Source: a virus (taxonomy: Duplodnaviria; Heunggongvirae; Uroviricota; Caudoviricetes). From it: 64,000 bases of DNA. Under the pieces are notes generated by a model. It did not search any database, was not told the origin of the DNA, and was given only the letters and a program-made list of their open reading frames with translations. Below, piece after piece: positions 12,533 to 60,606 of this stretch. Position numbers and translations under genes: made by a program. How positions within the stretch are numbered: the first letter of the stretch is position 1; each line of letters starts with the position of its first letter. The DNA lies in IMG/VR virus record IMGVR_UViG_2695420523_000009, positions 12,534-76,533 of that record; one strand, given 5' to 3'.

Positions 12533-13561
12533 ATGTCTAAGACATTACTTGATTTGCTTAACAAAACTCGTGAAGACATTGCCGCCAAACGTGGTAACAA
12601 CGTTGATCTGACTCGCTTAAAAGACGGCGTCAACTATATCCGCATCTTCCCGAATAAAGACGACCCAAACGGTAAGTTCTTCCAGACTTTCGGTATGCAC
12701 TACGTTAAGTATCAGAACGAGGAAGGTAAAGAAGCAACCAACGCTTATATTTGTGAGCAACATACTCACGGTCGCGCTTGTCAGCTATGCGAAATGGTGA
12801 TGGAAGGTCGCGCTCGTCACAAGGGTAACAAAGCAATGGAAGAACGCATCGGTCAAATGCGTGCCACTCCTCGCTACCTGGTCAACGGCATTCTTTCTGC
12901 TCGTGAGGATTTCGCAGATGCTGAGAAATGCCAGTTAATCGAGCTGCCGTCTACTGTATTCGATGATATCTGCAAAGCAATCACCGAAGACATCGCTGAT
13001 GATATCGGCAATCCACTGAGCAAAGAGGAAGGCTACGCATTCCTGATTAAACGTACTGGCTCTGGTCGCGATACCAAATATGACGTCTCGCCTAAGCGTA
13101 AAGTCTACAAAGGCGATATCGAAGATAAATTCTGGAATACCCAGCATGATCTGATCGCATACGCAAATCAAGCTGATGAAACTCGTCTTCTGTCGACAGT
13201 TCGCACTATGGGTCGTCTGATTGGCATCGCTGCACCAACTGCCGCAGCATCTGCACCAGCAATTTCCTCAACCGCGAAAACATCGGCTGCGGCACTACCT
13301 GGATTTGGCTCTGTCACTGGTCATACGGAGGGTGCGACTGCTGTAGCTACCGCTCATACCCCAGCTTCTGAACCAACCAGTCTGGTTGATGAAGAAATCC
13401 TCCGTGCCGTTGAAACTGAATTTAAACCAGAAGCAAGTCCCGCTGCCGTTGCAGTATCAGTCAAAGAGTCTGAAGCAGTCGCAGCGACATCTGTAGCAGC
13501 CGCATCTGCGACGGAAGATGAAGGTCTGGATGACCTACTGAGAGAGCTGGACTCTCTGTAA
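12533..13561 (+). CDS. single-stranded DNA-binding protein, T4 gp32-like
   Basis: IRIFPNKDDPNGKFF resembles gp32 IRFLPSKNDE; Zn-site-like C-x2-H-x-H-x3-C-x2-C (CEQHTHGRACQLC); Ala-rich linker and acidic C-terminal tail (EDEGLDDLLRELDSL). Confidence 0.7.
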   Translation: MSKTLLDLLNKTREDIAAKRGNNVDLTRLKDGVNYIRIFPNKDDPNGKFFQTFGMHYVKYQNEEGKEATNAYICEQHTHGRACQLCEMVMEGRARHKGNKAMEERIGQMRATPRYLVNGILSAREDFADAEKCQLIELPSTVFDDICKAITEDIADDIGNPLSKEEGYAFLIKRTGSGRDTKYDVSPKRKVYKGDIEDKFWNTQHDLIAYANQADETRLLSTVRTMGRLIGIAAPTAAASAPAISSTAKTSAAALPGFGSVTGHTEGATAVATAHTPASEPTSLVDEEILRAVETEFKPEASPAAVAVSVKESEAVAATSVAAASATEDEGLDDLLRELDSL

Positions 13562-50818: not shown

Positions 50819-50939
50819 CGGTTGCAACTCATTGATAATGGCGGTCACAATTTGATTCTTTTCTATAAGAATCCGTTGATCGCCACTACTCCCTTTCCAT
50901 ACCCGCAATCACATCCTTAAATATCAATAAGTTATAGTT

Positions 50940-51700
50940 TTTATACAATCAAGAAAACAACTGAATAACAGATCAACGAAACATCAACGCTTTCACCCGA
51001 TTTGGTCTAAAAAATTGACGTTTTCACACATCACTTCTTATACCCGTAATTCTACGCAGCAGACAGCGCCACAGCGTCCAATTTTCACCACAGACGACCC
51101 AACACACTACCAACAAAAACACACGCTCAAAATCGCTCCCGTTGCGTTACACAACCATATAAACAACTTATTTTCAGGCATAACAAAACAACTAAATAAC
51201 ACACATGCCATTCCCAAAAACAACCAACCTCTTTATGGCAGGCTACCGAAAAGACCCACCTCTTCTCCCCAGGCTACCGGACAGCCAACCTAACTTTCAC
51301 AGGCAATCCGAAAACATTCATACGCGCAATACCCACGACACGCCATTACCCAAACAGCGAAGAAACACCAGAATCACTGAAACCCCAACGAAGCCTGTAA
51401 CCACAAGGATTCTCTCAATCCCAAAAGACACGAAACATAACAATCACGGGAAACGCCATTACCCAATACACGAATAACTACAAAAGCCCTTCACGCACTC
51501 CAGACAAACAACTCAAACACAACAACGAAAGGAATCGCCCACCTGCCATTACTCCATACATGGAGAAGAACAATCACCAAAACGACGAGAACACCCCATA
51601 GAAGAACCACCGCAAAACGAACGAAACCACATACACCGACAGAGAAACAACACACCCAATTCACCAACAGAAATAGTCGCCGTATAGAACATTCTGGAAG
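50940..51700 (+). other. A+C-rich, G/T-poor non-coding tract (strand-asymmetric)
   Basis: Top strand dominated by A and C with few G (e.g. CAACACACTACCAACAAAAACACACGC); the ORFs called here are composition artefacts with no RBS. Confidence 0.6.
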
Positions 51701-51875: not shown

Positions 51876-52009
51876 CAGGGAAAAGGTTGCATCCCGCTAC
51901 AGAAACGGCTGGGTTGCCTTCGGGGAACGGCTGGGGATTTTCAGGGAAACGGTCGAGTTGCCTGTGTGGATTTCGGGAAAAGGCTCGATGCCGGTTCAGG
52001 AACGGCGGC
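51876..52009. repeat. direct-repeat array, GGGAAACGG family, about 22-bp periodicity (array 1)
   Basis: Six copies (CAGGGAAAAGG, CAGAAACGGCTGG, CGGGGAACGGCTGG, CAGGGAAACGG, TCGGGAAAAGG, CAGGAACGG) at 21-22 bp spacing (one 31 bp); TGTGGAT DnaA-box-like core at about 51965. Confidence 0.6.
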
Positions 52010-52640: not shown

Positions 52641-52682
52641 CTATTAACCTCCGGGCAGCGCAGCACCGTAACGATATACTTT

Positions 52683-52740
52683 GTGGCCGTTTTCTTACTG
52701 GTATTATTTACGCAATTCAGAAAACAACATGTTTAAGGAT
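52683..52740. repeat. about 57-bp promoter-region cassette, copy 1 of 2
   Basis: GTGGCCGTTTTCTTACTGGTATTATTTACGCAATTCAGAAAACAACATGTTTAAGGA; near-identical copy at 53167..53222. Confidence 0.7.
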
Positions 52741-53110: not shown

Positions 53111-53166
53111 TCTATAGCCGCAGGGAAGAACCTGCATATCGCTCATGCACCTGATCAATATGCTTT

Positions 53167-53222
53167 GTAGCCGTTTTCTTACTGGTATTATTTACGCCAT
53201 TGAGAAAACAAGTTGTTTACGG
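53167..53222. repeat. about 57-bp promoter-region cassette, copy 2 of 2
   Basis: GTAGCCGTTTTCTTACTGGTATTATTTACGCCATTGAGAAAACAAGTTGTTTACGGA. Confidence 0.7.
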
Positions 53223-53229
53223 AGTTGTA

Positions 53230-54180: not shown

Positions 54181-54555
54181 ATGGGACTTGATATCTATAT
54201 CGAGACACAGCCTAAAAACGATCTGAATAACGAGGCATCCAGAAAGCAGGTTGCTTACTTCCGTAAGTTCAATGCGCTCGTTGGGTGGATGGAGCGCAAC
54301 GTAGGTGAAGTCGAAAATTGTGAGCTTTTAGAATTAACGATGAATGACATTTGTTTTCTGAAGGCTCATTTGATGCACATAAACGAAAGTAATTGCGAAG
54401 AGTACTTGCCTACCCGGGAAGGTTTTTTCTTCGGCAGTCAGGAGTACGATGAAGGTTACTGGCATGATGTGGGGCAGTTGAAAGAGCTTGTGGAAGACCT
54501 GATTAAGAACCACGACTTTCACAATAACAGACTGACCTTCTGCGCCTGGTGGTAA
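54181..54555 (+). CDS. hypothetical protein
   Basis: 124 aa from ATG 54181 (RBS AAGGAAACC). Confidence 0.5.
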   Translation: MGLDIYIETQPKNDLNNEASRKQVAYFRKFNALVGWMERNVGEVENCELLELTMNDICFLKAHLMHINESNCEEYLPTREGFFFGSQEYDEGYWHDVGQLKELVEDLIKNHDFHNNRLTFCAWW

Positions 54556-54557
54556 AT

Positions 54558-54701
54558 ATGGGCGATTTCAAGAAACGCCTGAAGGAAAGAGCCGAGATGG
54601 TCAGAAAGCAAAACGCCTCTTCTGTCATCAGATACGCAAGGCAGTTTAGTCGCAACAACAAATCAGTTGAGGAAAAGATCCTTAGCGTAATCGTGCGATA
54701 A
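54558..54701 (+). CDS. hypothetical small basic protein
   Basis: 47 aa ORF (below ORF-track cutoff) starting 2 nt after the upstream stop. Confidence 0.3.
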   Translation: MGDFKKRLKERAEMVRKQNASSVIRYARQFSRNNKSVEEKILSVIVR

Positions 54702-54870
54702 TTATTAAGGCCATCAGCATTGGTGGCCTTAAATGACCATCTTGTTTCCCGCAGGCTAAAAACACCAACCTCTTACCTCCAGGCAACCGACAAACCCACC
54801 TGTTCCCGTCCGGCTACCGCAACTTTCCACTTTGACGCCTTATTCGTACAACGATAATTAACGCCAACAA

Positions 54871-54886
54871 GAAAACAATTTGTTAT
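54871..54886. promoter_or_regulatory. GAAAACAA-N-TTGTT palindromic motif
   Basis: GAAAACAATTTGTTAT, 19 bp upstream of the ATG at 54906. Confidence 0.5.
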
Positions 54887-54905
54887 TTACGATAAGGAAT
54901 TAATC

Positions 54906-55388
54906 ATGAATTTTATCGCTACTGTAAACGCACCCGCACATGGCAATATCGCTGTAACGTTCTCTGACATTGAAAAACGAGTACTTGGTGCATGGCGCGA
55001 CAATGAGACGGTAGAACTGTCAGCACAAGAAAAATGCATTATTGCACGCGACATCATTGGCAATCGTCGTTACTCGCGGGTATTTGAGAAAGCGTATGTG
55101 GTAAATTCTGGATTCGGAACGTTCGTCTTTCCGGTGCGCTCCGGGCGATTCTGCCAGTCCAAGCTGATTGAGTTCGCTACGCAGATTTCTGTCTGGATTA
55201 AAACTCAATCGTCGTTCAAATTTTCCGACGATGAAGCAGTATCGCAGGGGATGCGGATCGCCAACAATGCGATTAAATGCAAAAACATTACGTATACCGC
55301 TGGCGTTGATACATGGAAACTGTTTTGCGCTAACTTTATGCTGAATGTATACGCAAGCAACCGCATCCACATCCTTGATGGCGTGTAA
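54906..55388 (+). CDS. hypothetical protein
   Basis: 160 aa, RBS AAGGAA. Confidence 0.55.
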   Translation: MNFIATVNAPAHGNIAVTFSDIEKRVLGAWRDNETVELSAQEKCIIARDIIGNRRYSRVFEKAYVVNSGFGTFVFPVRSGRFCQSKLIEFATQISVWIKTQSSFKFSDDEAVSQGMRIANNAIKCKNITYTAGVDTWKLFCANFMLNVYASNRIHILDGV

Positions 55389-55392
55389 CTGA

Positions 55393-55420
55393 GAAGAGGG
55401 CCAGAAACGGCCCTTTCTCT
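55393..55420 (+). terminator. rho-independent terminator
   Basis: GAGGGCC-agaaac-GGCCCTT followed by TCTCT. Confidence 0.6.
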
Positions 55421-55438
55421 ATAGCCACCAGCTGCCGC

Positions 55439-55550
55439 AGGGAAATTTTCAGAAGCGGCGAGGAACGTATTCATGAGCCGACGGGGAACGGCCAGGATTT
55501 TTTCGGGAAACGGCTGCATTTGCCTTTGTGTAGAAAAAACATCGGGAAGC
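55439..55550. repeat. direct-repeat array, GGGAAACGG family, about 22-bp periodicity (array 2)
   Basis: CAGGGAAAT, GAGGAACG, GGGGAACGGCC, CGGGAAACGGCTG, CGGGAAGCTGG; same family as array 1 at 51876..52009. Confidence 0.55.
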
Positions 55551-55963
55551 TGGTGGAATCCAACCAGCGGTTGTCGGACAGGTGAGCGGGGAAAATTATG
55601 ATGACTTTCGTCACCTGAGACATCCAGATTTCTTTCGTAGCATAATCACATACGTGATTAAGTGGTGTGATTATGTGAAAAATCACGCGCACATAATACG
55701 CGAGCGGATACGGAACAAAACAAAATGCCGATCCGCGCCGACAAATAAACGCGGATCATAAAGCAAGACTAAAAGCCAATGATTAACTATGCGCTATAAC
55801 GCGTTTTAAGCGCGTTAATGTGTTAAGTAATGGGTATGTACTGGCAAGGATATAAAAGCGCGTCTATGGCGTTATTTTGGCGCTTATTTTTATGTTGTTG
55901 GAGTGAGTTAAAGACAATAAAAAACGCGCCATCAATGGCGCGTTATTGTGGAAGTATTGGAAA

Positions 55964-56000
55964 CGAAAAAAGCGCCCATAGTGGGCGCTCGATTTTATTT
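55964..56000. terminator. bidirectional terminator; GCGC-rich hairpin family member
   Basis: AAAAAAGCGCCCATAGTGGGCGCTCGATTTTATTT; serves the minus-strand operon ending at 55995. Confidence 0.7.
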
Positions 56001-56225
56001 ATGTAAACTGATTTCAAATCCCATTTCTACAAACGCTTTTAACATTAAAAATAGATCAGCGTCGTTCACGTCTGCTTTTTTTCGCTCCTGGTCGCTCAAT
56101 AAGTCAATTTTGCGCGTCGTTTCATCTATAAGCTCGACTGCGCGCCCAGCGTAACCAGCGATCCCAGCGATGCGATTAACATAATATTCATTATGGACGT
56201 TAACGCCAGCGATAAGAACAAACAT
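55995..56225 (-). CDS. hypothetical protein
   Basis: 76 aa, last gene of a 3-gene minus-strand operon in an AT-rich islet. Confidence 0.45.
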   Translation of the reverse strand: MFVLIAGVNVHNEYYVNRIAGIAGYAGRAVELIDETTRKIDLLSDQERKKADVNDADLFLMLKAFVEMGFEISLHK

Positions 56226-56246
56226 GATTAAGCTCCTTAAAAAAAA

Positions 56247-56495
56247 TTAAATAGAATTTTGAAGTTTTCCGATTAATGCGCTTAAGCGTAAGTATTCACG
56301 TTTGCGCTTGCAATCTCGCTTGCTGTTAAGCAAATCAGAAAACGTAAAATTTAATTGGTCGCGTTGCGCGATCAAATCGTCGATTAATTCCAGTTTATAA
56401 GCGCGATAATTTGCGCGATATTCTGCGCGGATCTTGTCATAGCTGACCATCTTTAAAGCTCCTTTAAAGCGCCCATTGTGGGCGCTTGATTCCAT
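56247..56495 (-). CDS. hypothetical protein (start possibly internal, at about 56450)
   Basis: 82 aa ORF; a GCGC hairpin at 56467..56487 lies in its 5' end. Confidence 0.4.
   Translation of the reverse strand: MESSAHNGRFKGALKMVSYDKIRAEYRANYRAYKLELIDDLIAQRDQLNFTFSDLLNSKRDCKRKREYLRLSALIGKLQNSI
56467..56487. repeat. GCGC-rich palindromic hairpin AAGCGCCCATTGTGGGCGCTT
   Basis: Near-identical to the 55971..55989 palindrome; related palindromes at 55924..55945 and 55797..55815. Confidence 0.6.
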
Positions 56496-56498
56496 TAA

Positions 56499-57149
56499 TT
56501 ACGCTTTAAAAGCATCAGCTAAATAATTGTAGAAATCATTCTTGATAAAGCGATATTGCTGTGTACCAGCTTTGGCGCTCCCAGCTCCTTTGACTTTTTC
56601 AACAAGTCCGAGACGTTCGCAAAGATTGATCAACTGGTTGGCTTGAGTATAGCCAGCGTCCAATTTAATTTCACACGCTTTTTTAGCTTCATTCATTAAA
56701 TCGAAAACAGCGCCATTGGTGAACGTGTCGATCTCGTCGTTAATCATATCGATTAAAGCGAATACACGAGATCCAGACATATCAGCGATGGAATAAATGC
56801 ATTTACCAGATTTAATTGATTTAACCAGATAAACCAGTTTTTCCAGAGAATAACTATTAGTCATTGCATCACGAAAAAATACTTCTGGCGCTTGTTTGCT
56901 TGCTTTAATCGCATAGTAGAAAACAGAGCACAATTTTTCGTCTTCTACAGCGTTTACAACGTTGTTGATGAAGTAAGCTAGTTTAGTGGTCGCAGCTTGC
57001 ATATTTGCTTTGTCTGCTTTAGTGTGCGTACCATTTTTATAATGTTCGTTGTATGTTTGAGTTGCCAGATCTGCTTTTTCGCGCAGTTCATCGGATACAA
57101 TGGAAGCAGCTTCAACGATGGATTTTTTAGAAATGATAATGTTAGCCAT
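56499..57149 (-). CDS. hypothetical protein (C-terminal winged-helix-like segment)
   Basis: 216 aa; C-terminal QLINLCERLGLVEKVKG resembles a wHTH recognition region; preceded by a 280-bp AT-rich promoter region. Confidence 0.55.
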   Translation of the reverse strand: MANIIISKKSIVEAASIVSDELREKADLATQTYNEHYKNGTHTKADKANMQAATTKLAYFINNVVNAVEDEKLCSVFYYAIKASKQAPEVFFRDAMTNSYSLEKLVYLVKSIKSGKCIYSIADMSGSRVFALIDMINDEIDTFTNGAVFDLMNEAKKACEIKLDAGYTQANQLINLCERLGLVEKVKGAGSAKAGTQQYRFIKNDFYNYLADAFKA

Positions 57150-57433
57150 GATGATTTTTCCTTATGTAAATTTAAAATTTATTGTCGTTAGCGTCTTCGC
57201 TTTCGACGAGTTCAATCATCGATATACGAAAAAAGATTGCAAGTGTTTTTTTTAAAATTTTTTGCAGGGATGAAAGTCCTAGAAATAAAAGCGAGATCGT
57301 CGAAGGTGTTCCCTAAATAAATAATCGATTCCGGCTTTAGACCTTATATATATTTAGGTTATTTGATTTATAGATATAAAGAAGTGATGTGAAAAATAAT
57401 AACCGGACTTAGCCGGTTATTAACCTTATAGAT

Positions 57434-57742
57434 TTATTGAACAGACTCTACAGCCTTACGATTGGTGTCAAATAGCGCATCAACGAACTGTGCCGATGAC
57501 TCGCTAGATTCGCAATCCAACATTGCCCGTTCTTCATTTGCCACTTTCTTACACAGTTCCACATTCTCGCCTATCGCTTTTCCTGCTTTTACGGCTGCCG
57601 AAAATTGATACATGCAAACTGATACATTCTGAGACGTTGAGCACACGTCATTCATCAGCGACTGAATGACAGGCTTATAGTCCATTGCATTTGCTGCAAC
57701 TGAGCAAAGTAAAAATAATGGTGGTAACAATATCGATTTCAT
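57434..57742 (-). CDS. hypothetical secreted Cys-containing protein
   Basis: Signal-peptide-like MKSILLPPLFLLCSVAANA; 102 aa; 3 nt after the upstream gene. Confidence 0.5.
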   Translation of the reverse strand: MKSILLPPLFLLCSVAANAMDYKPVIQSLMNDVCSTSQNVSVCMYQFSAAVKAGKAIGENVELCKKVANEERAMLDCESSESSAQFVDALFDTNRKAVESVQ

Positions 57743-57745
57743 AAC

Positions 57746-58270
57746 TCAAAAAGGCAAAATTCGTTCAACCCAATCGAACAAAACAACTATTTTTCTACCG
57801 TTCTCGACACGTAGTGTAACCTGACAAGCATCTGCACCTGCTGACACCCCCTCAATTTCACGGCCATCCGCCATGTACACCCTTATAGATTTGTTTGCTT
57901 TGTAGGCTTGGTTGCAAATTGCAAAAAAATCGCGGCGTGATGGCCGATTATCGACATAATCAGGGTGAACTGTTAGTCGACCTTTGAAATCGTGAGCGAT
58001 ACTGTCAACCACACCTGATTCAATTGTACTAATGCGTTCAAGTGGGAGCCTTATACGATTTTCTTTGTCAAAAGGGGCTGGGCAAAGGTCAACTTTGTTA
58101 CGAGATGGCATGAGGCCATAAACGTACATGCAAAACGCCTGGCCATCTTCGAGAGTGACCCTTACAGGAATTTGTTCTCTGCGCCAGAACATCAGTAGTT
58201 TTTCAACGTTAGTGTAATCTCGCGGCCAGAGTTCAGCTTGGATACCGTAGGTAATATCTTTGGTTGTCAT
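57746..58270 (-). CDS. hypothetical protein
   Basis: 175 aa from the internal ATG at 58270; the ORF-track start 58348 would overlap the upstream lipoprotein gene by 74 nt. Confidence 0.45.
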   Translation of the reverse strand: MTTKDITYGIQAELWPRDYTNVEKLLMFWRREQIPVRVTLEDGQAFCMYVYGLMPSRNKVDLCPAPFDKENRIRLPLERISTIESGVVDSIAHDFKGRLTVHPDYVDNRPSRRDFFAICNQAYKANKSIRVYMADGREIEGVSAGADACQVTLRVENGRKIVVLFDWVERILPF

Positions 58271-58274
58271 GTCA

Positions 58275-58739
58275 TCACAGAGTTGTTGGCAGAATGTCGA
58301 TGTCACCAGAATTGCTGGTGAACACCCTGAACGCTTTTGTGTCTCCATTCTTCAGAGTCGTTTCTCGCTCTTGACGAGCGGGGTTTAGAGCACATAAACC
58401 TGCACCTTCAAGAGATGCACCCACAATTAATTCTCCGGCATTTAAATGGAAAGTCGCTTTTTCGCCTGTAGCCAGTTTTGCGACAGTTTCGCCGTTGATG
58501 AAAATGGAAGCATCACATCCAGCTCCTACAAAACCTGTGTCTCTCATTACCACCAACGTAGCTGGCGCTGCGCTTTGATACTTGAACACTTTGGCCTGCG
58601 GTGCTGGTTTGGCGTCATGGATTGATATTGGGCGTGATTGGCACGCGGTAAGCATCAACACTGGTAACGTTAGTAGAGGGAGAAGCGAGTATTTCATGAT
58701 AGTTTTAGAACAGAAAGTGAACAGTATGGGAGACTTCAT
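58275..58739 (-). CDS. putative lipoprotein
   Basis: Lipobox LTAC; the internal Met (58697) gives a canonical 19-aa lipoprotein signal peptide (MKYSLLPLLTLPVLMLTAC); RBS AGGGAG before the 58739 start. Confidence 0.6.
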   Translation of the reverse strand: MKSPILFTFCSKTIMKYSLLPLLTLPVLMLTACQSRPISIHDAKPAPQAKVFKYQSAAPATLVVMRDTGFVGAGCDASIFINGETVAKLATGEKATFHLNAGELIVGASLEGAGLCALNPARQERETTLKNGDTKAFRVFTSNSGDIDILPTTL

Positions 58740-58765
58740 CTTTGTCTCCCTAATTGATAGCGTGA

Positions 58766-59044
58766 TTATTTTAATCTGCTTAATAGCGTTTCGAGATCTT
58801 CCTTTGTCATATTAGAGTTCTCATAGATACGCATGATTTTCTCACGAGTCTTAGCGGAAGCCCCGACAGAAGATATAACCTTGTCAAAGTCGGCCATTGT
58901 CAATTGTTCCAGAATGGTATTTATGACTTCAGCCTTAGACATTTTGATATTTTTTTCTTTTAGTTTCACTTGAAACTTTCCAAGTTTGTCATTGGCCTTA
59001 TCAGACAATGCTACCTGACAGTAAGTTGTTTTCTTTTCACTCAT
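58766..59044 (-). CDS. hypothetical protein
   Basis: 92 aa, starts 2 nt after the helicase stop (coupled). Confidence 0.5.
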   Translation of the reverse strand: MSEKKTTYCQVALSDKANDKLGKFQVKLKEKNIKMSKAEVINTILEQLTMADFDKVISSVGASAKTREKIMRIYENSNMTKEDLETLLSRLK

Positions 59045-59046
59045 AA

Positions 59047-60606
59047 CTAATCTCGTTTCAGAACTCCAAAATCGAATGCTCCATCAATAGGCAATACACC
59101 TTCTGCAAAGCCAGGTGTGGTGTCGATGATGTGTTTTCGCTCATAAGAGTGAGACAACAGGTATTTGTTGCTAATGTCAATGAAATCAGTGATAAAACAC
59201 ACGTTTGCCTGATTTTTTTTGGCTCGTAAGCCACGACCGACACGCTGTCTCATTTCAACTTCTGCTTTCCCACCACCAGCAAGAATGACCGCACCAACGC
59301 TTGGCACATCAACACCAACATCCAGAATAGTCGAGCCTATTAAAACATCTATTTCACCAGACGCTAAACTATTCAGCTTTGCTTGCCTTGTCGTCTGGTT
59401 AGATTCCCCATAGATGAAATCAACTTTAAGACCTGACTCCTTCATCATCTCCATCAGGATTTGCCCGTGGCGTTTAAGACGAACCAGAGTCATGCAGTTG
59501 AGTGAATGTTGCTTATAAAGCAATGCCTCGCGCACTATGGCCTCGTTACGTCCCAAATTATACACGATCCCCAACTGATAAGCCTTTTGGTAGGCGGTGC
59601 TCATACCAACTCTAAAATTGAGGTGTTTGTTGGCAAGTTCGGCCTTGATTCTGGCCTCGTCTGGCTTGTAGGCAACTTTATGATAAAGGAAGTACGGCTT
59701 TGCCAGAATGCCTCGATCAATCAGGTACTTTTCTGTGACTTTAATTTCAATTCGCCCGGCCACCGCCATCAGGCGCATGTTGGCTTCCGTCGAATCCTTC
59801 ATGAACGGCGTGGCTGTAAGCGCCAGACGATAGTCTGCGTTCACACATAATCTGGCAATGTCATAGAAATTAGAGCCTGAAGACTCATGCGCTTCTTCCA
59901 GAATAAGCAGAGACACACTTGAAAGGAAGCGTTTCACCAACTCCCGACGTTTGAGATGGTAGCTCTTTTTATCTGGTGTTGCATCGCGTGGTGGTTCTTC
60001 AAGGAAACTTGCCAGAGTTTGAACTGTAGCGACGTTGATATGTCGTGATACCTGGAACTCACCCGAGCCAATGACTCCAACCTTTTGGCCCTTTAACCAC
60101 GGTTCGCCATTTTCGGCGCGGTAGTCGATGGATCTCTGGAAGTTTTCGGCCATTTGAAACATCAGAACAGAGCGGGTTGTTAAAAATAATGTCATTCGAC
60201 CGATACGTGCAGCTGCTTTGCAGGCAACGTTAGATTTCCCGCCACCAGTAGCGATCTGCGCAATCATCATTCCCTCTCGAACCAGTGTTTCCACAGTCTG
60301 ATCCTGATACGCATAATCAGGATTGTATGGGAATGGGTTAACCGCCGGATTTGGTTTACCAAGCGCCGGGGCTTTGTCTTTGCGGATATGAACACATTTG
60401 ATGCCCGCCTTGTTCAAGTTCGCCGCTACAGGCTTGGCAAAGCCAGCAGGGAACGAGTTTTTACTCCAGTTGAACATCGTGCTTGTGCCCTTCCAGTCGC
60501 CAGTCTCGACTTCGTAGCTCAACATTTGCTGCACCAGTTGCTTTACCTTGTCATCTGCGCCAGAAATAAGCGCATTTACTGCGTTAGATACAATCCGAAC
60601 AGTCAT
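59047..60606 (-). CDS. superfamily-2 DNA/RNA helicase (DEAD/DEAH-like, ResIII-type)
   Basis: Walker A IATGGGKS, DEAH-like LILEEAHE, motif III LTATP, motif VI QRVGRGLR. Confidence 0.85.
   Translation of the reverse strand: MTVRIVSNAVNALISGADDKVKQLVQQMLSYEVETGDWKGTSTMFNWSKNSFPAGFAKPVAANLNKAGIKCVHIRKDKAPALGKPNPAVNPFPYNPDYAYQDQTVETLVREGMMIAQIATGGGKSNVACKAAARIGRMTLFLTTRSVLMFQMAENFQRSIDYRAENGEPWLKGQKVGVIGSGEFQVSRHINVATVQTLASFLEEPPRDATPDKKSYHLKRRELVKRFLSSVSLLILEEAHESSGSNFYDIARLCVNADYRLALTATPFMKDSTEANMRLMAVAGRIEIKVTEKYLIDRGILAKPYFLYHKVAYKPDEARIKAELANKHLNFRVGMSTAYQKAYQLGIVYNLGRNEAIVREALLYKQHSLNCMTLVRLKRHGQILMEMMKESGLKVDFIYGESNQTTRQAKLNSLASGEIDVLIGSTILDVGVDVPSVGAVILAGGGKAEVEMRQRVGRGLRAKKNQANVCFITDFIDISNKYLLSHSYERKHIIDTTPGFAEGVLPIDGAFDFGVLKRD

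Follow-up and report, generated by a model that had tools for sequence, protein, structure and literature searches.

A partner-less FljA-family gene, exchangeable envelope-protein genes and an unusually constrained terminator hairpin in a conserved block of SSU5/pHCM2-type phage-plasmids

What does a tailed phage gain from a run of small minus-strand genes placed just downstream of a helicase? The run in question lies at positions 55,430 to 59,044 of a 64,000-nucleotide stretch of viral DNA (Caudoviricetes; IMG/VR record IMGVR_UViG_2695420523_000009, positions 12,534 to 76,533), which we call the window. Matches of the region 55400-59100 identify the window as an SSU5/pHCM2-type phage-plasmid of E. 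coli: the region shares 99% identity with phage-plasmids of that species ('Escherichia phage CMS-2020a', plasmid p4_0.2), and it also matches phage SSU5 and Cyrano, the phage-plasmid of strain LF82. It is matched by 770 PLSDB plasmids, 742 of them non-mobilizable, those listed being ~95-125 kb long and hosted by Klebsiella, Escherichia, Enterobacter, Yersinia (pMT1), Salmonella, Citrobacter and Cronobacter. An initial annotation, made from the window's letters alone, had read the run as an accessory islet with an envelope-protein operon that might exclude superinfecting phages. We find instead that three things meet in the block: a new phage-plasmid variant of the FljA flagellin-repressor family that has no partner flagellin, genes for envelope proteins that are exchanged between relatives, and a terminator hairpin under unusual constraint. 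We further hold, with moderate confidence, that it comprises two differently regulated transcription units: one from the helicase to the small secreted protein p102, on in lysogeny, and a p216 operon with RNA hairpins that is off.

Two proposed transcription units in a conserved block

The layout of the block is shared by ten plasmids and phages of E. coli, Salmonella, Yersinia, Klebsiella and Cronobacter. Every one of these relatives has ParB-like genes, the helicase, p92, a variable slot, an FljA-like gene, an optional small secreted protein, a terminator, a spacer and p216, in that order. The open reading frames (ORFs), AT-rich spacer and palindromes that had been described in the window are all there, the seven minus-strand ORFs being p92, a lipoprotein, a 174/175-aa protein, p102, p216, an 82-aa ORF and p76. 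The genes upstream of the spacer had been said to lie 2-4 nt apart, which is true of the helicase/p92 (2 nt), lipoprotein/174-aa (4 nt) and 174-aa/p102 (3 nt) junctions but not of the gap between p92 and the lipoprotein, which measures 68 nt from the ATG at 58697 or 26 nt from the first ATG. A contig of Xenorhabdus bovienii (L166, JAILTY010000012.1, 104 kb) has the order ParB-ParB, helicase, small gene, further genes, FljA-like gene and a 224-aa gene, and so extends the block, and probably SSU5-like phage-plasmids as well, to Xenorhabdus.

Evidence on expression comes from the homologous block of Cyrano, for which RNA-seq of LF82 lysogens is available in five conditions (PMC9928086 Table 1, S1 Table). 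Values are given as log2(fpkm+5), where fpkm denotes fragments per kilobase per million, so that the floor of the scale is 2.32. The helicase, p92, slot lipoprotein and FljA-like genes (CYRAN_118, 117, 115 and 114) stand at 7-9.9 in growing or intramacrophage lysogens and at 4.2-7.2 in overnight LB, and within the block transcription is highest for CYRAN_117, the p92 homologue. For the homologues of p216 and p76 (CYRAN_113 and 112) the values are 2.3-3.9, with a maximum of 5.7 late in macrophages (PMC9928086). Because values are high upstream and close to the floor for p216 and p76, the upstream unit appears to be the plasmid-state unit and the p216 operon to be repressed in lysogens. This pattern, one of expression levels rather than mapped 3' ends, fits the intrinsic terminator found at 57397. 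That terminator is kept in the main clade and carries compensatory substitutions in L007, the most divergent Klebsiella element. RNA-seq had been proposed as the means of defining operon boundaries; the Cyrano data supply this in part, with unit 1 on and the p216 operon off, in an element whose slot content differs from the window's.

The division into two units on either side of an AT-rich spacer, as first suggested, is supported by the spacer itself (57150-57433; 284 bp, GC 0.31). It holds the terminator of unit 1, a pair of direct repeats, an A-tract with a sigma-70-type promoter and a leader, all of them conserved even in L007. The activity of this promoter is predicted from its sequence; since its downstream homologues in Cyrano are near zero in lysogens, it appears to be repressed in the plasmid state. 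We therefore propose the following scheme. Unit 1 (helicase, p92, lipoprotein, FljA-like protein and p102), whose conserved members are p92 and the FljA-family protein, would be expressed during plasmid carriage and end at 57397-57422. Unit 2 would start at the conserved promoter, flanked by operator-like repeats, would be shut off in lysogens, and would encode p216 together with the optional small genes p67 and p76.

Several genes of the two units are conserved without resembling anything characterised. p92 follows the helicase in 10 of 10 relatives and had no match in Pfam or PDB searches; a guess from its sequence pattern that it might be a ribbon-helix-helix protein gained no support from Pfam searches with eight homologues. 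p216 is present in 815 plasmids and was without a match in Pfam, PDB and PADLOC. Family and profile searches with p92, p216, p67 and p76 gave no recognisable functional family, and PADLOC returned generic helicase-domain similarity for the helicase and no match for the other eight proteins.

The FljA-family protein and its possible targets

The 175-aa protein, which had been passed over as a nondescript accessory product, is a 174-aa member of the FljA family encoded by a core gene. It matches Pfam PF03614 (Flag1_repress, 'Repressor of phase-1 flagellin') with E 1.5e-84 and 282.4 bits against a cut-off of 24, residues 5-171 covering profile positions 1-170 of 170. Its match to phrog_1444 has E 1.9e-100, and it is 36% identical over 171 aa (E 1e-37) to the NCBI cluster 'phase 1 flagellin gene repressor FljA [Salmonella enterica]'. 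In the structural model an N-terminal alpha-helix is followed by a strongly bent five-stranded antiparallel sheet, as in the Sm/Hfq fold, and the C-terminal half gives a weak Hfq match; sequence and profile searches of the PDB gave nothing usable for this protein. In GenBank the gene is already annotated as a putative flagellin repressor in SSU5 and pHCM2; our literature search retrieved no paper linking FljA with SSU5, pHCM2 or phage-plasmids, and flagella go unmentioned in two papers on phage-plasmids.

PF03614 is a very small family, with 29 clusters among 1.84 billion representatives. The phage-plasmid gene is present in 835 plasmids (345 from Klebsiella, 229 Escherichia, 92 Enterobacter, 62 Yersinia and 60 Salmonella), a count close to that of the core gene p216. 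Every lineage, pMT1 and three divergent Klebsiella clades among them, shows purifying selection on the gene, with a ratio of non-synonymous to synonymous substitution rates (dN/dS) of 0.08-0.2.

How might such a protein act? The characterised proteins FljA, FljA-z66 and FlkB are described, in secondary citations, as blocking fliC translation and as always paired with a second flagellin gene; PMC2652032 reports FljA homologues that repress fliC translation, and a FljA that makes cells non-motile when it lacks a working partner flagellin. Neither the window nor the remainder of the 99%-identical plasmid contains a flagellin-like sequence, and in relatives the neighbours of the FljA-like gene are the helicase, p92, the slot and p216, never a flagellin gene. 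By analogy with FljA, we predict that the window protein is an RNA-binding post-transcriptional repressor whose tandem Sm/Hfq-like domains would bind the leader of one or a few mRNAs and block their translation. Host flagellin mRNA would be the prime candidate target where the host is flagellated; a further target, possibly encoded by the element, seems about as likely. Because elements from Klebsiella and Y. pestis retain the gene, and because LF82 is flagellated, repression of flagellin would be only partial or conditional, or else would not be the conserved function.

Taken together, several observations weigh against the scheme of a lysogeny-expressed unit carrying an FljA-like repressor. 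The RNA-seq is from Cyrano, whose slot lipoprotein belongs to a different family and lies on the opposite strand, so that co-transcription of the four genes in the window is deduced from their 2-4-nt spacings only. At 36% identity to characterised FljA, the RNA specificity of the protein may differ. That the gene is intact in the 345 Klebsiella and 62 Yersinia plasmids argues against a simple flagellin shut-off, as do the functional flagella of LF82, which transcribes the Cyrano copy. Further, the window shows no similarity to the E. coli fliC leader, so that no element-borne target has been identified. The best candidate for a mimic of that leader, a 12-mer match (TGAGCCGACGGG, 55474-55485, E 0.3), is not conserved in relatives and was rejected, and a search for the motif GGG-N6-CCCAATA gave fewer matches than chance.

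These observations raise the alternative that the protein does not act on flagellin at all, and instead serves the phage-plasmid family itself as a post-transcriptional regulator, of lysis-lysogeny or replication genes for instance, from which Salmonella FljA was later recruited. We regard this as a real possibility, if short of probable. The status of a core gene under selection in every lineage, the flagellated state of LF82 and the lack of an adjacent flagellin gene all favour it. So does the remote family member in Xenorhabdus, which is 24% identical to the window protein and keeps the same synteny, and so does a neighbour-joining tree in which Salmonella FljA branches among phage-plasmid clades. 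The tree hints, and does no more than hint, at recruitment of the flagellar repressor from a phage-plasmid of this kind; it is unrooted and carries no support values, which counts against leaning on it. On the other side, every characterised PF03614 member is described as repressing flagellin translation, most hosts of these phage-plasmids are motile Enterobacterales, and no candidate target was found within the element.

A chromosomal FljA-like copy of the phage-plasmid type occurs on a 5.2-Mb contig of E. coli (protein P0074); it is 52% identical, is made up of several scrambled segments and may be a decaying integrated copy.

Table 1. Positions of the genes, terminators and other features discussed in the text (window coordinates)
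Feature	Position	Strand	Basis or description
SF2 (UvsW/DEAD-box type) helicase	59047..60606	-	ORF; relatives annotated DEAD/DEAH or UvsW helicase; first gene of the unit proposed to be expressed in lysogeny
p92, small conserved core protein	58766..59044	-	phrog_1466, E 5e-46; begins 2 nt past helicase stop
Lipoprotein, outer-membrane-type, 140 aa	58275..58697	-	lipobox LTAC; phrog_890 'lipoprotein', E 1e-51
FljA-family protein, 174 aa, core gene	57746..58270	-	two tandem Sm/Hfq-like domains (modelled)
p102, small secreted protein, optional	57434..57742	-	phrog_9536; signal peptide MKSILLPPLFLLCSVAANA; four Cys in mature part
Intrinsic terminator closing helicase-to-p102 unit	57397..57422	-	TAATAACCGG-N6-CCGGTTATTA then TTTTT; terminator scan; -12.6 kcal/mol, z -4.6
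Regulatory spacer of p216 operon	57150..57396	-	GC 0.30; alignment of 10 relatives
Spacer direct repeats	TTTATTTAGGGAAC 57321-57308; TTTATTTCTAGGAC 57289-57276	-	conserved in alignment
A-tract, then putative sigma-70-type promoter	TTGCAA 57242-57237; GATGAT 57220-57215	-	16 nt between the two hexamers; leader ~60 nt; conserved in alignment
p216, conserved core protein	56499..57149	-	phrog_1513, E 1.5e-138; first gene of operon silent in lysogens, judging by Cyrano
Intercistronic hairpin copy	56468..56486	-	AGCGCCCA-CAA-TGGGCGCT on transcribed strand; tail TTTAAAGGAG; -15.1 kcal/mol, z -3.2
p67, optional small gene	56247..56450	-	phrog_6145 aligns from residue 16; 204 nt in relatives' annotation
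p76, optional small gene	55995..56225	-	phrog_1585, E 2e-38
Terminator hairpin copy and tail	55958..55989	-	AGCGCCCACTATGGGCGCT then TTTTTTCGTTTCC; palindrome 55971-55989; terminator scan; -15.5 kcal/mol, z -4.0
Second tandem intrinsic terminator	55920..55947	-	AACGCGCCAT-TG-ATGGCGCGTT then TTTTTTATT; -16.8 kcal/mol, z -4.7
Length-conserved noncoding gap	55389..55919	.	~540-630 nt in all relatives; between tandem terminators and convergent p160
Related palindrome in gap	55797-55817		
Terminator-like hairpin in gap	55729-55758	-	U-rich tail; -18.6 kcal/mol, z -3.6
Terminator-like hairpin in gap	55686-55702	-	U-rich tail; -9.6 kcal/mol, z -1.75
p160 terminator	55394-55420		

The p216 operon and its invariant hairpins

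The p216 operon is punctuated by near-identical GCGC-rich palindromes, which lie within a few nucleotides of where they had been described (55971-55989 and 56468-56486, with related hairpins at 55920-55947 and 55797-55817). The distinct composition of the DNA around them also stood up: 55995-57149 has a GC content of 0.39 and 13 GCGC per kb against 3.8 per kb in the whole window. Over the wider interval 55389-57149, GCGC is about nine-fold over-represented for the base composition (13-16.5 per kb at 39-46% GC), an excess for which hairpins are responsible in the noncoding gap and recurring Arg-Ala codon pairs (CGC-GCA) are partly responsible in p67. A reading of this part as a foreign AT-rich islet was rejected, since the family as a whole shares p216, the promoter region ahead of it and the hairpins as core features of a conserved operon.

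Between p216 and p76, the 82-aa ORF does exist (56247-56495) and is most likely translated as a 67-aa protein from the ATG at 56450, which has AAGGAG 8 nt upstream, in keeping with the relatives' annotators and phrog_6145. Its homologue SSU5_119 (L002) and phrog_6145 are labelled 'MIT family metal ion transporter' or CorA; such a name is implausible for a soluble protein of only 67 aa and is probably an annotation error carried from record to record. p67 and p76 are present or absent among relatives independently of each other.

The two copies of the palindrome differ in what follows them. The copy at 55971-55989 has the anatomy of an intrinsic terminator, with a TTTTTT tail, and is backed by a second, tandem terminator, which is kept in the main clade and altered in L007. 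The copy at 56468-56486 begins 12 nt past the p216 stop, directly before the Shine-Dalgarno sequence of p67; it has the stem of a terminator, followed only by TTTAAAGG in place of a full U-tract. The first copy would thus terminate the operon, and the second would act as an intercistronic hairpin upstream of the next ribosome-binding site, probably a leaky terminator or an mRNA-stability element. The copies delimit the optional genes in each layout observed: p216-hairpin-p67-p76-hairpin in the window, p216-hairpin-p67-hairpin in SSU5, p216-hairpin-p76-hairpin in pMT1 and Cyrano, and p216-hairpin in Cronobacter. Optional genes would be gained or lost at the repeated hairpins, most simply through recombination between copies.

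It is the sequence of the hairpin, and not only its structure, that is conserved. Ten relatives chosen by FljA homology have it at both positions. Among 73 distinct relatives chosen by p216 homology, 72 have the stem GCGCCCA/TGGGCGC and 70 have the hairpin at the 56468-56486 position. In 53 distinct anchored sequences the stems are 100% identical and the flanks 44-48% identical. The exact 24-mer was found in 67 contigs of IMG/VR and, among 185,579 species-representative genomes, in 6 stretches. It always stands in this synteny, even in elements that share only 30-50% identity with the window in their p216, p160 and FljA-like proteins. The initial annotation had suggested looking for the palindrome elsewhere in the element; the 19-nt sequence has two matches in the 64-kb window (0.03 expected), both at this locus, and none in the other 47 kb of the near-identical plasmid.

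Variation is confined to the three loop bases: where one element has CTA, a near-identical one often has its reverse complement, TAG. Across the relatives' loci (L080-L159), the loop pairs CTA/TAG, TTA/TAA, TCA/TGA and CAA/TTG were seen in elements whose p216 is 98-99% identical. Because the loops alternate as reverse complements in such close relatives, the loop appears to have been inverted at the DNA level, repeatedly and recently. Departures from stem invariance include a single compensatory change in AnCo3 (GGCGCCCA...TGGGCGCC) and a different hairpin in the remote Xenorhabdus element.

An ordinary terminator needs no invariant stem, and explaining these hairpins as terminators leaves the invariance unaccounted for, which is a further point against our scheme. 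The palindrome could instead be primarily a sequence-specific recognition site in DNA or RNA, used by an element-encoded binder or in the recombination of small genes, with termination secondary. We consider this somewhat unlikely. The near-perfect stem identity in spite of diverged flanks and neighbouring proteins speaks for such a site, all the more as the ordinary terminator 3' of the FljA-like gene drifts by compensatory change in divergent clades. Copies of the palindrome coincide precisely with the edges of p67 and p76, the optional genes; its three central nucleotides vary freely and change orientation, as expected of a dimer-bound palindrome; and the motif is exclusive to this locus and this phage-plasmid family. 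Yet the position after stop codons, with a U-tract at the end, is textbook terminator anatomy. A recombinase is absent from the vicinity, the integrase lying tens of kilobases away, and the palindrome lacks attC-like asymmetry. AnCo3 and the Xenorhabdus relative depart from the stem, and gene conversion between copies together with recombination between elements could help to keep its sequence. The proposal that the palindromes are regulator sites or RNA-processing hairpins therefore needs recasting: by their anatomy they are terminator and intercistronic hairpins unique to the locus, an outcome close to one that the initial annotation had itself named as refuting it, and they are out of the ordinary in keeping an invariant stem at the junctions of optional genes. 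We retain the reading as terminator and intercistronic hairpin, with sequence constraint an added feature. An integron-type attC cassette system was rejected, the palindrome being a perfect one of 7-9 bp with a 3-nt loop and no asymmetry, and no recombinase lying within 10 kb in any relative.

Beyond the tandem terminators lies a noncoding gap of conserved length, in which the presence of two hairpins that resemble terminators and have U-rich tails points to at least one short transcript from the minus strand. An Rfam scan of 54500-59500 (E<=1) returned sub-threshold matches to Hrs1, suhB, bxd_5 and a snoRNA (22-26 bits against cut-offs of 41-56), which we treated as chance. Operator-like inverted repeats at 55643-55687 (TAATCAC-N4-GTGATTA and GTGATT-N8-AATCAC) are partly kept in relatives as GTGATTATGTG. 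The best-conserved part of the gap is a cluster of GGGRAACGGY boxes at 55441-55535, spaced ~22 nt apart as in a second cluster at 51916-51990, with which it shares a 37-nt core at 78% identity. Five of the seven matches in the window fall in these clusters (2.85 matches expected), and L009 has an extra 22-nt unit. The boxes could be iteron-, partition- or packaging-type protein-binding sites.

Two more stretches with repeats lie at lower coordinates. A 77-nt promoter- or leader-like sequence, 61-86% identical among its copies at 52663-52739, 53147-53223 and 54814-54890, precedes three small plus-strand genes, including p160 at 54906-55388. The interval 50900-51700 is ORF-poor for more than 0.8 kb, C/A-rich with an extreme asymmetry between the strands (GC skew -0.47, AT skew +0.36), and crowded with short degenerate direct repeats.

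Envelope proteins and comparison with known systems

Both proteins that had been described as envelope-targeted are genuinely so by their sequence signals. The lipobox (LTAC) of the lipoprotein has a Cys that is invariant in 12 homologues, and two further features mark the family: two conserved Cys in the mature protein and a sub-threshold match to DUF2846 in 9 of the 12. The longest form of the ORF spans 58275-58739, with an upstream ATG at 58739 as an alternative start; translation most likely begins at the ATG at 58697 (140 aa, MKYSLLPLLTLPVLMLTAC), as in nearly all homologues. Its family, phrog_890, is in the category 'other', searches of the PDB by sequence and profile gave nothing usable for it, and its AF2 model is poor (pLDDT 55).

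The Cys-containing p102 has a Sec-type signal peptide, which is retained in the divergent homologue of L007 (5549-5851). Several PGAP records, and phrog_9536, begin the protein at M20 and so remove the signal peptide. These starts are probably wrong, because the signal peptide is kept in that distant homologue and in Klebsiella copies, some of them unannotated, which align from residue 1 (tblastn, residues 1-102).

Both genes are optional. Where the adjoining FljA-like gene is found in 835 plasmids, the lipoprotein gene is found in 421; p102 is present in 259 and survives as a truncated remnant in AnCo3. Relatives have different genes at the corresponding positions: for lipoproteins of other kinds, in some cases encoded on the other strand, for different proteins with a signal peptide, or for cytoplasmic ones. 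This is the pattern of exchangeable lysogenic-conversion genes, the role in which the lipoprotein and p102 would fill these slots, and it is compatible with superinfection exclusion.

The initial annotation went further and likened the proteins to Cor and Llp, so that superinfection exclusion or receptor masking by the lipoprotein and p102 would be the functional point of the operon. We think this unlikely. The lipobox and the signal peptide are real, the slot is occupied in relatives by unrelated lipoproteins and secreted proteins, as expected of fast-evolving exclusion genes, and Cyrano lysogens strongly transcribe the lipoprotein gene that fills this slot there, though it is not a homologue; with each gene carried by only part of some 830 plasmids (421 and 259), an exclusion role is in these respects what one would expect. 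Against it, profile, structure and PADLOC defence-library searches found no similarity of either protein to Cor, Llp or any defence family, sequence searches likewise matched no exclusion protein, and the structure model of the lipoprotein is too poor for comparison. SSU5 adsorbs to the lipopolysaccharide core, and it is not obvious how a small lipoprotein would mask that receptor. The likeness to Cor and Llp is thus unsupported, and what stays of the exclusion proposal is the variable slot, transcribed in lysogeny in Cyrano. We continue to view the two as exchangeable envelope-protein genes of unit 1.

A last reading would join the parts of the block: the hairpin (GCGCCCA-NNN-TGGGCGC with a U-rich tail) would be the family's recognition element, read by an element factor, perhaps the FljA-like protein, as a private post-transcriptional switch of p216, and Salmonella FljA would have been borrowed later; this is very improbable, even though the FljA-like protein is the most interesting candidate reader because Hfq-type proteins bind modules of terminator hairpin and U-tail.

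Phage-plasmids of the SSU5/pHCM2/pMT1 type are frequent in Salmonella Typhi, Y. pestis and clinical E. coli and Klebsiella, and more than 800 PLSDB plasmids carry the block. If the FljA homologue lowers flagellin even conditionally, carriage would alter, in important pathogens, motility, H-antigen expression, recognition by TLR5 and NLRC4, and sensitivity to flagellotropic phages. If it has another target, the only known function of the FljA family would be a derived one, and the phage-plasmid proteins would represent a new class of RNA regulator with a fused double Sm domain. The invariant hairpin, for its part, offers a clean and testable 'terminator' constrained at the level of sequence rather than structure, at points where small genes are exchanged.

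Among known systems, the closest to the 174-aa protein are FljA of Salmonella enterica, FljA-z66 of pBSSB1 and the FlkB/FljA-like proteins of the E. coli flk/flm islets. The window protein shares with them full-length homology, length and a two-domain layout, and is expected by analogy to share their activity, binding of an mRNA leader and block of translation. By contrast, its gene shares no operon with a second flagellin gene such as fljB, flkA or flmA, has no invertase switch, holds a fixed place in the synteny from helicase to p216 on a phage-plasmid, and is kept in elements of non-flagellate hosts, while lysogens that transcribe it stay flagellated. Unlike Hfq and the bacterial Sm-like proteins, to which its identity is ~20%, it is modelled as two Sm-like domains fused in one chain.

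The envelope proteins resemble phage morons and the superinfection-exclusion lipoproteins Cor (phi80, N15, HK022) and Llp (T5) in being small, envelope-targeted and placed in a variable, lysogeny-expressed slot of a temperate element, with each gene individually optional. They differ in that no sequence or profile relationship links them to these proteins and they have no known link to a receptor; the lipoprotein bears only a weak resemblance to DUF2846, and its mature form is about twice the size of Cor or Llp. The hairpins, finally, follow stop codons, have GC-rich stems and, where the operon ends, carry a U-tract, like intrinsic terminators and intercistronic stabiliser hairpins, and their repeated copies coincide with points of gene exchange, like the conserved 'linker' sequences at module borders of lambdoid phages. 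Unlike all of these, they occur in two to three identical copies per element, their loop inverts between near-identical elements, and the sequence of their stem, not merely its structure, is invariant in a family whose proteins are 30-50% identical.

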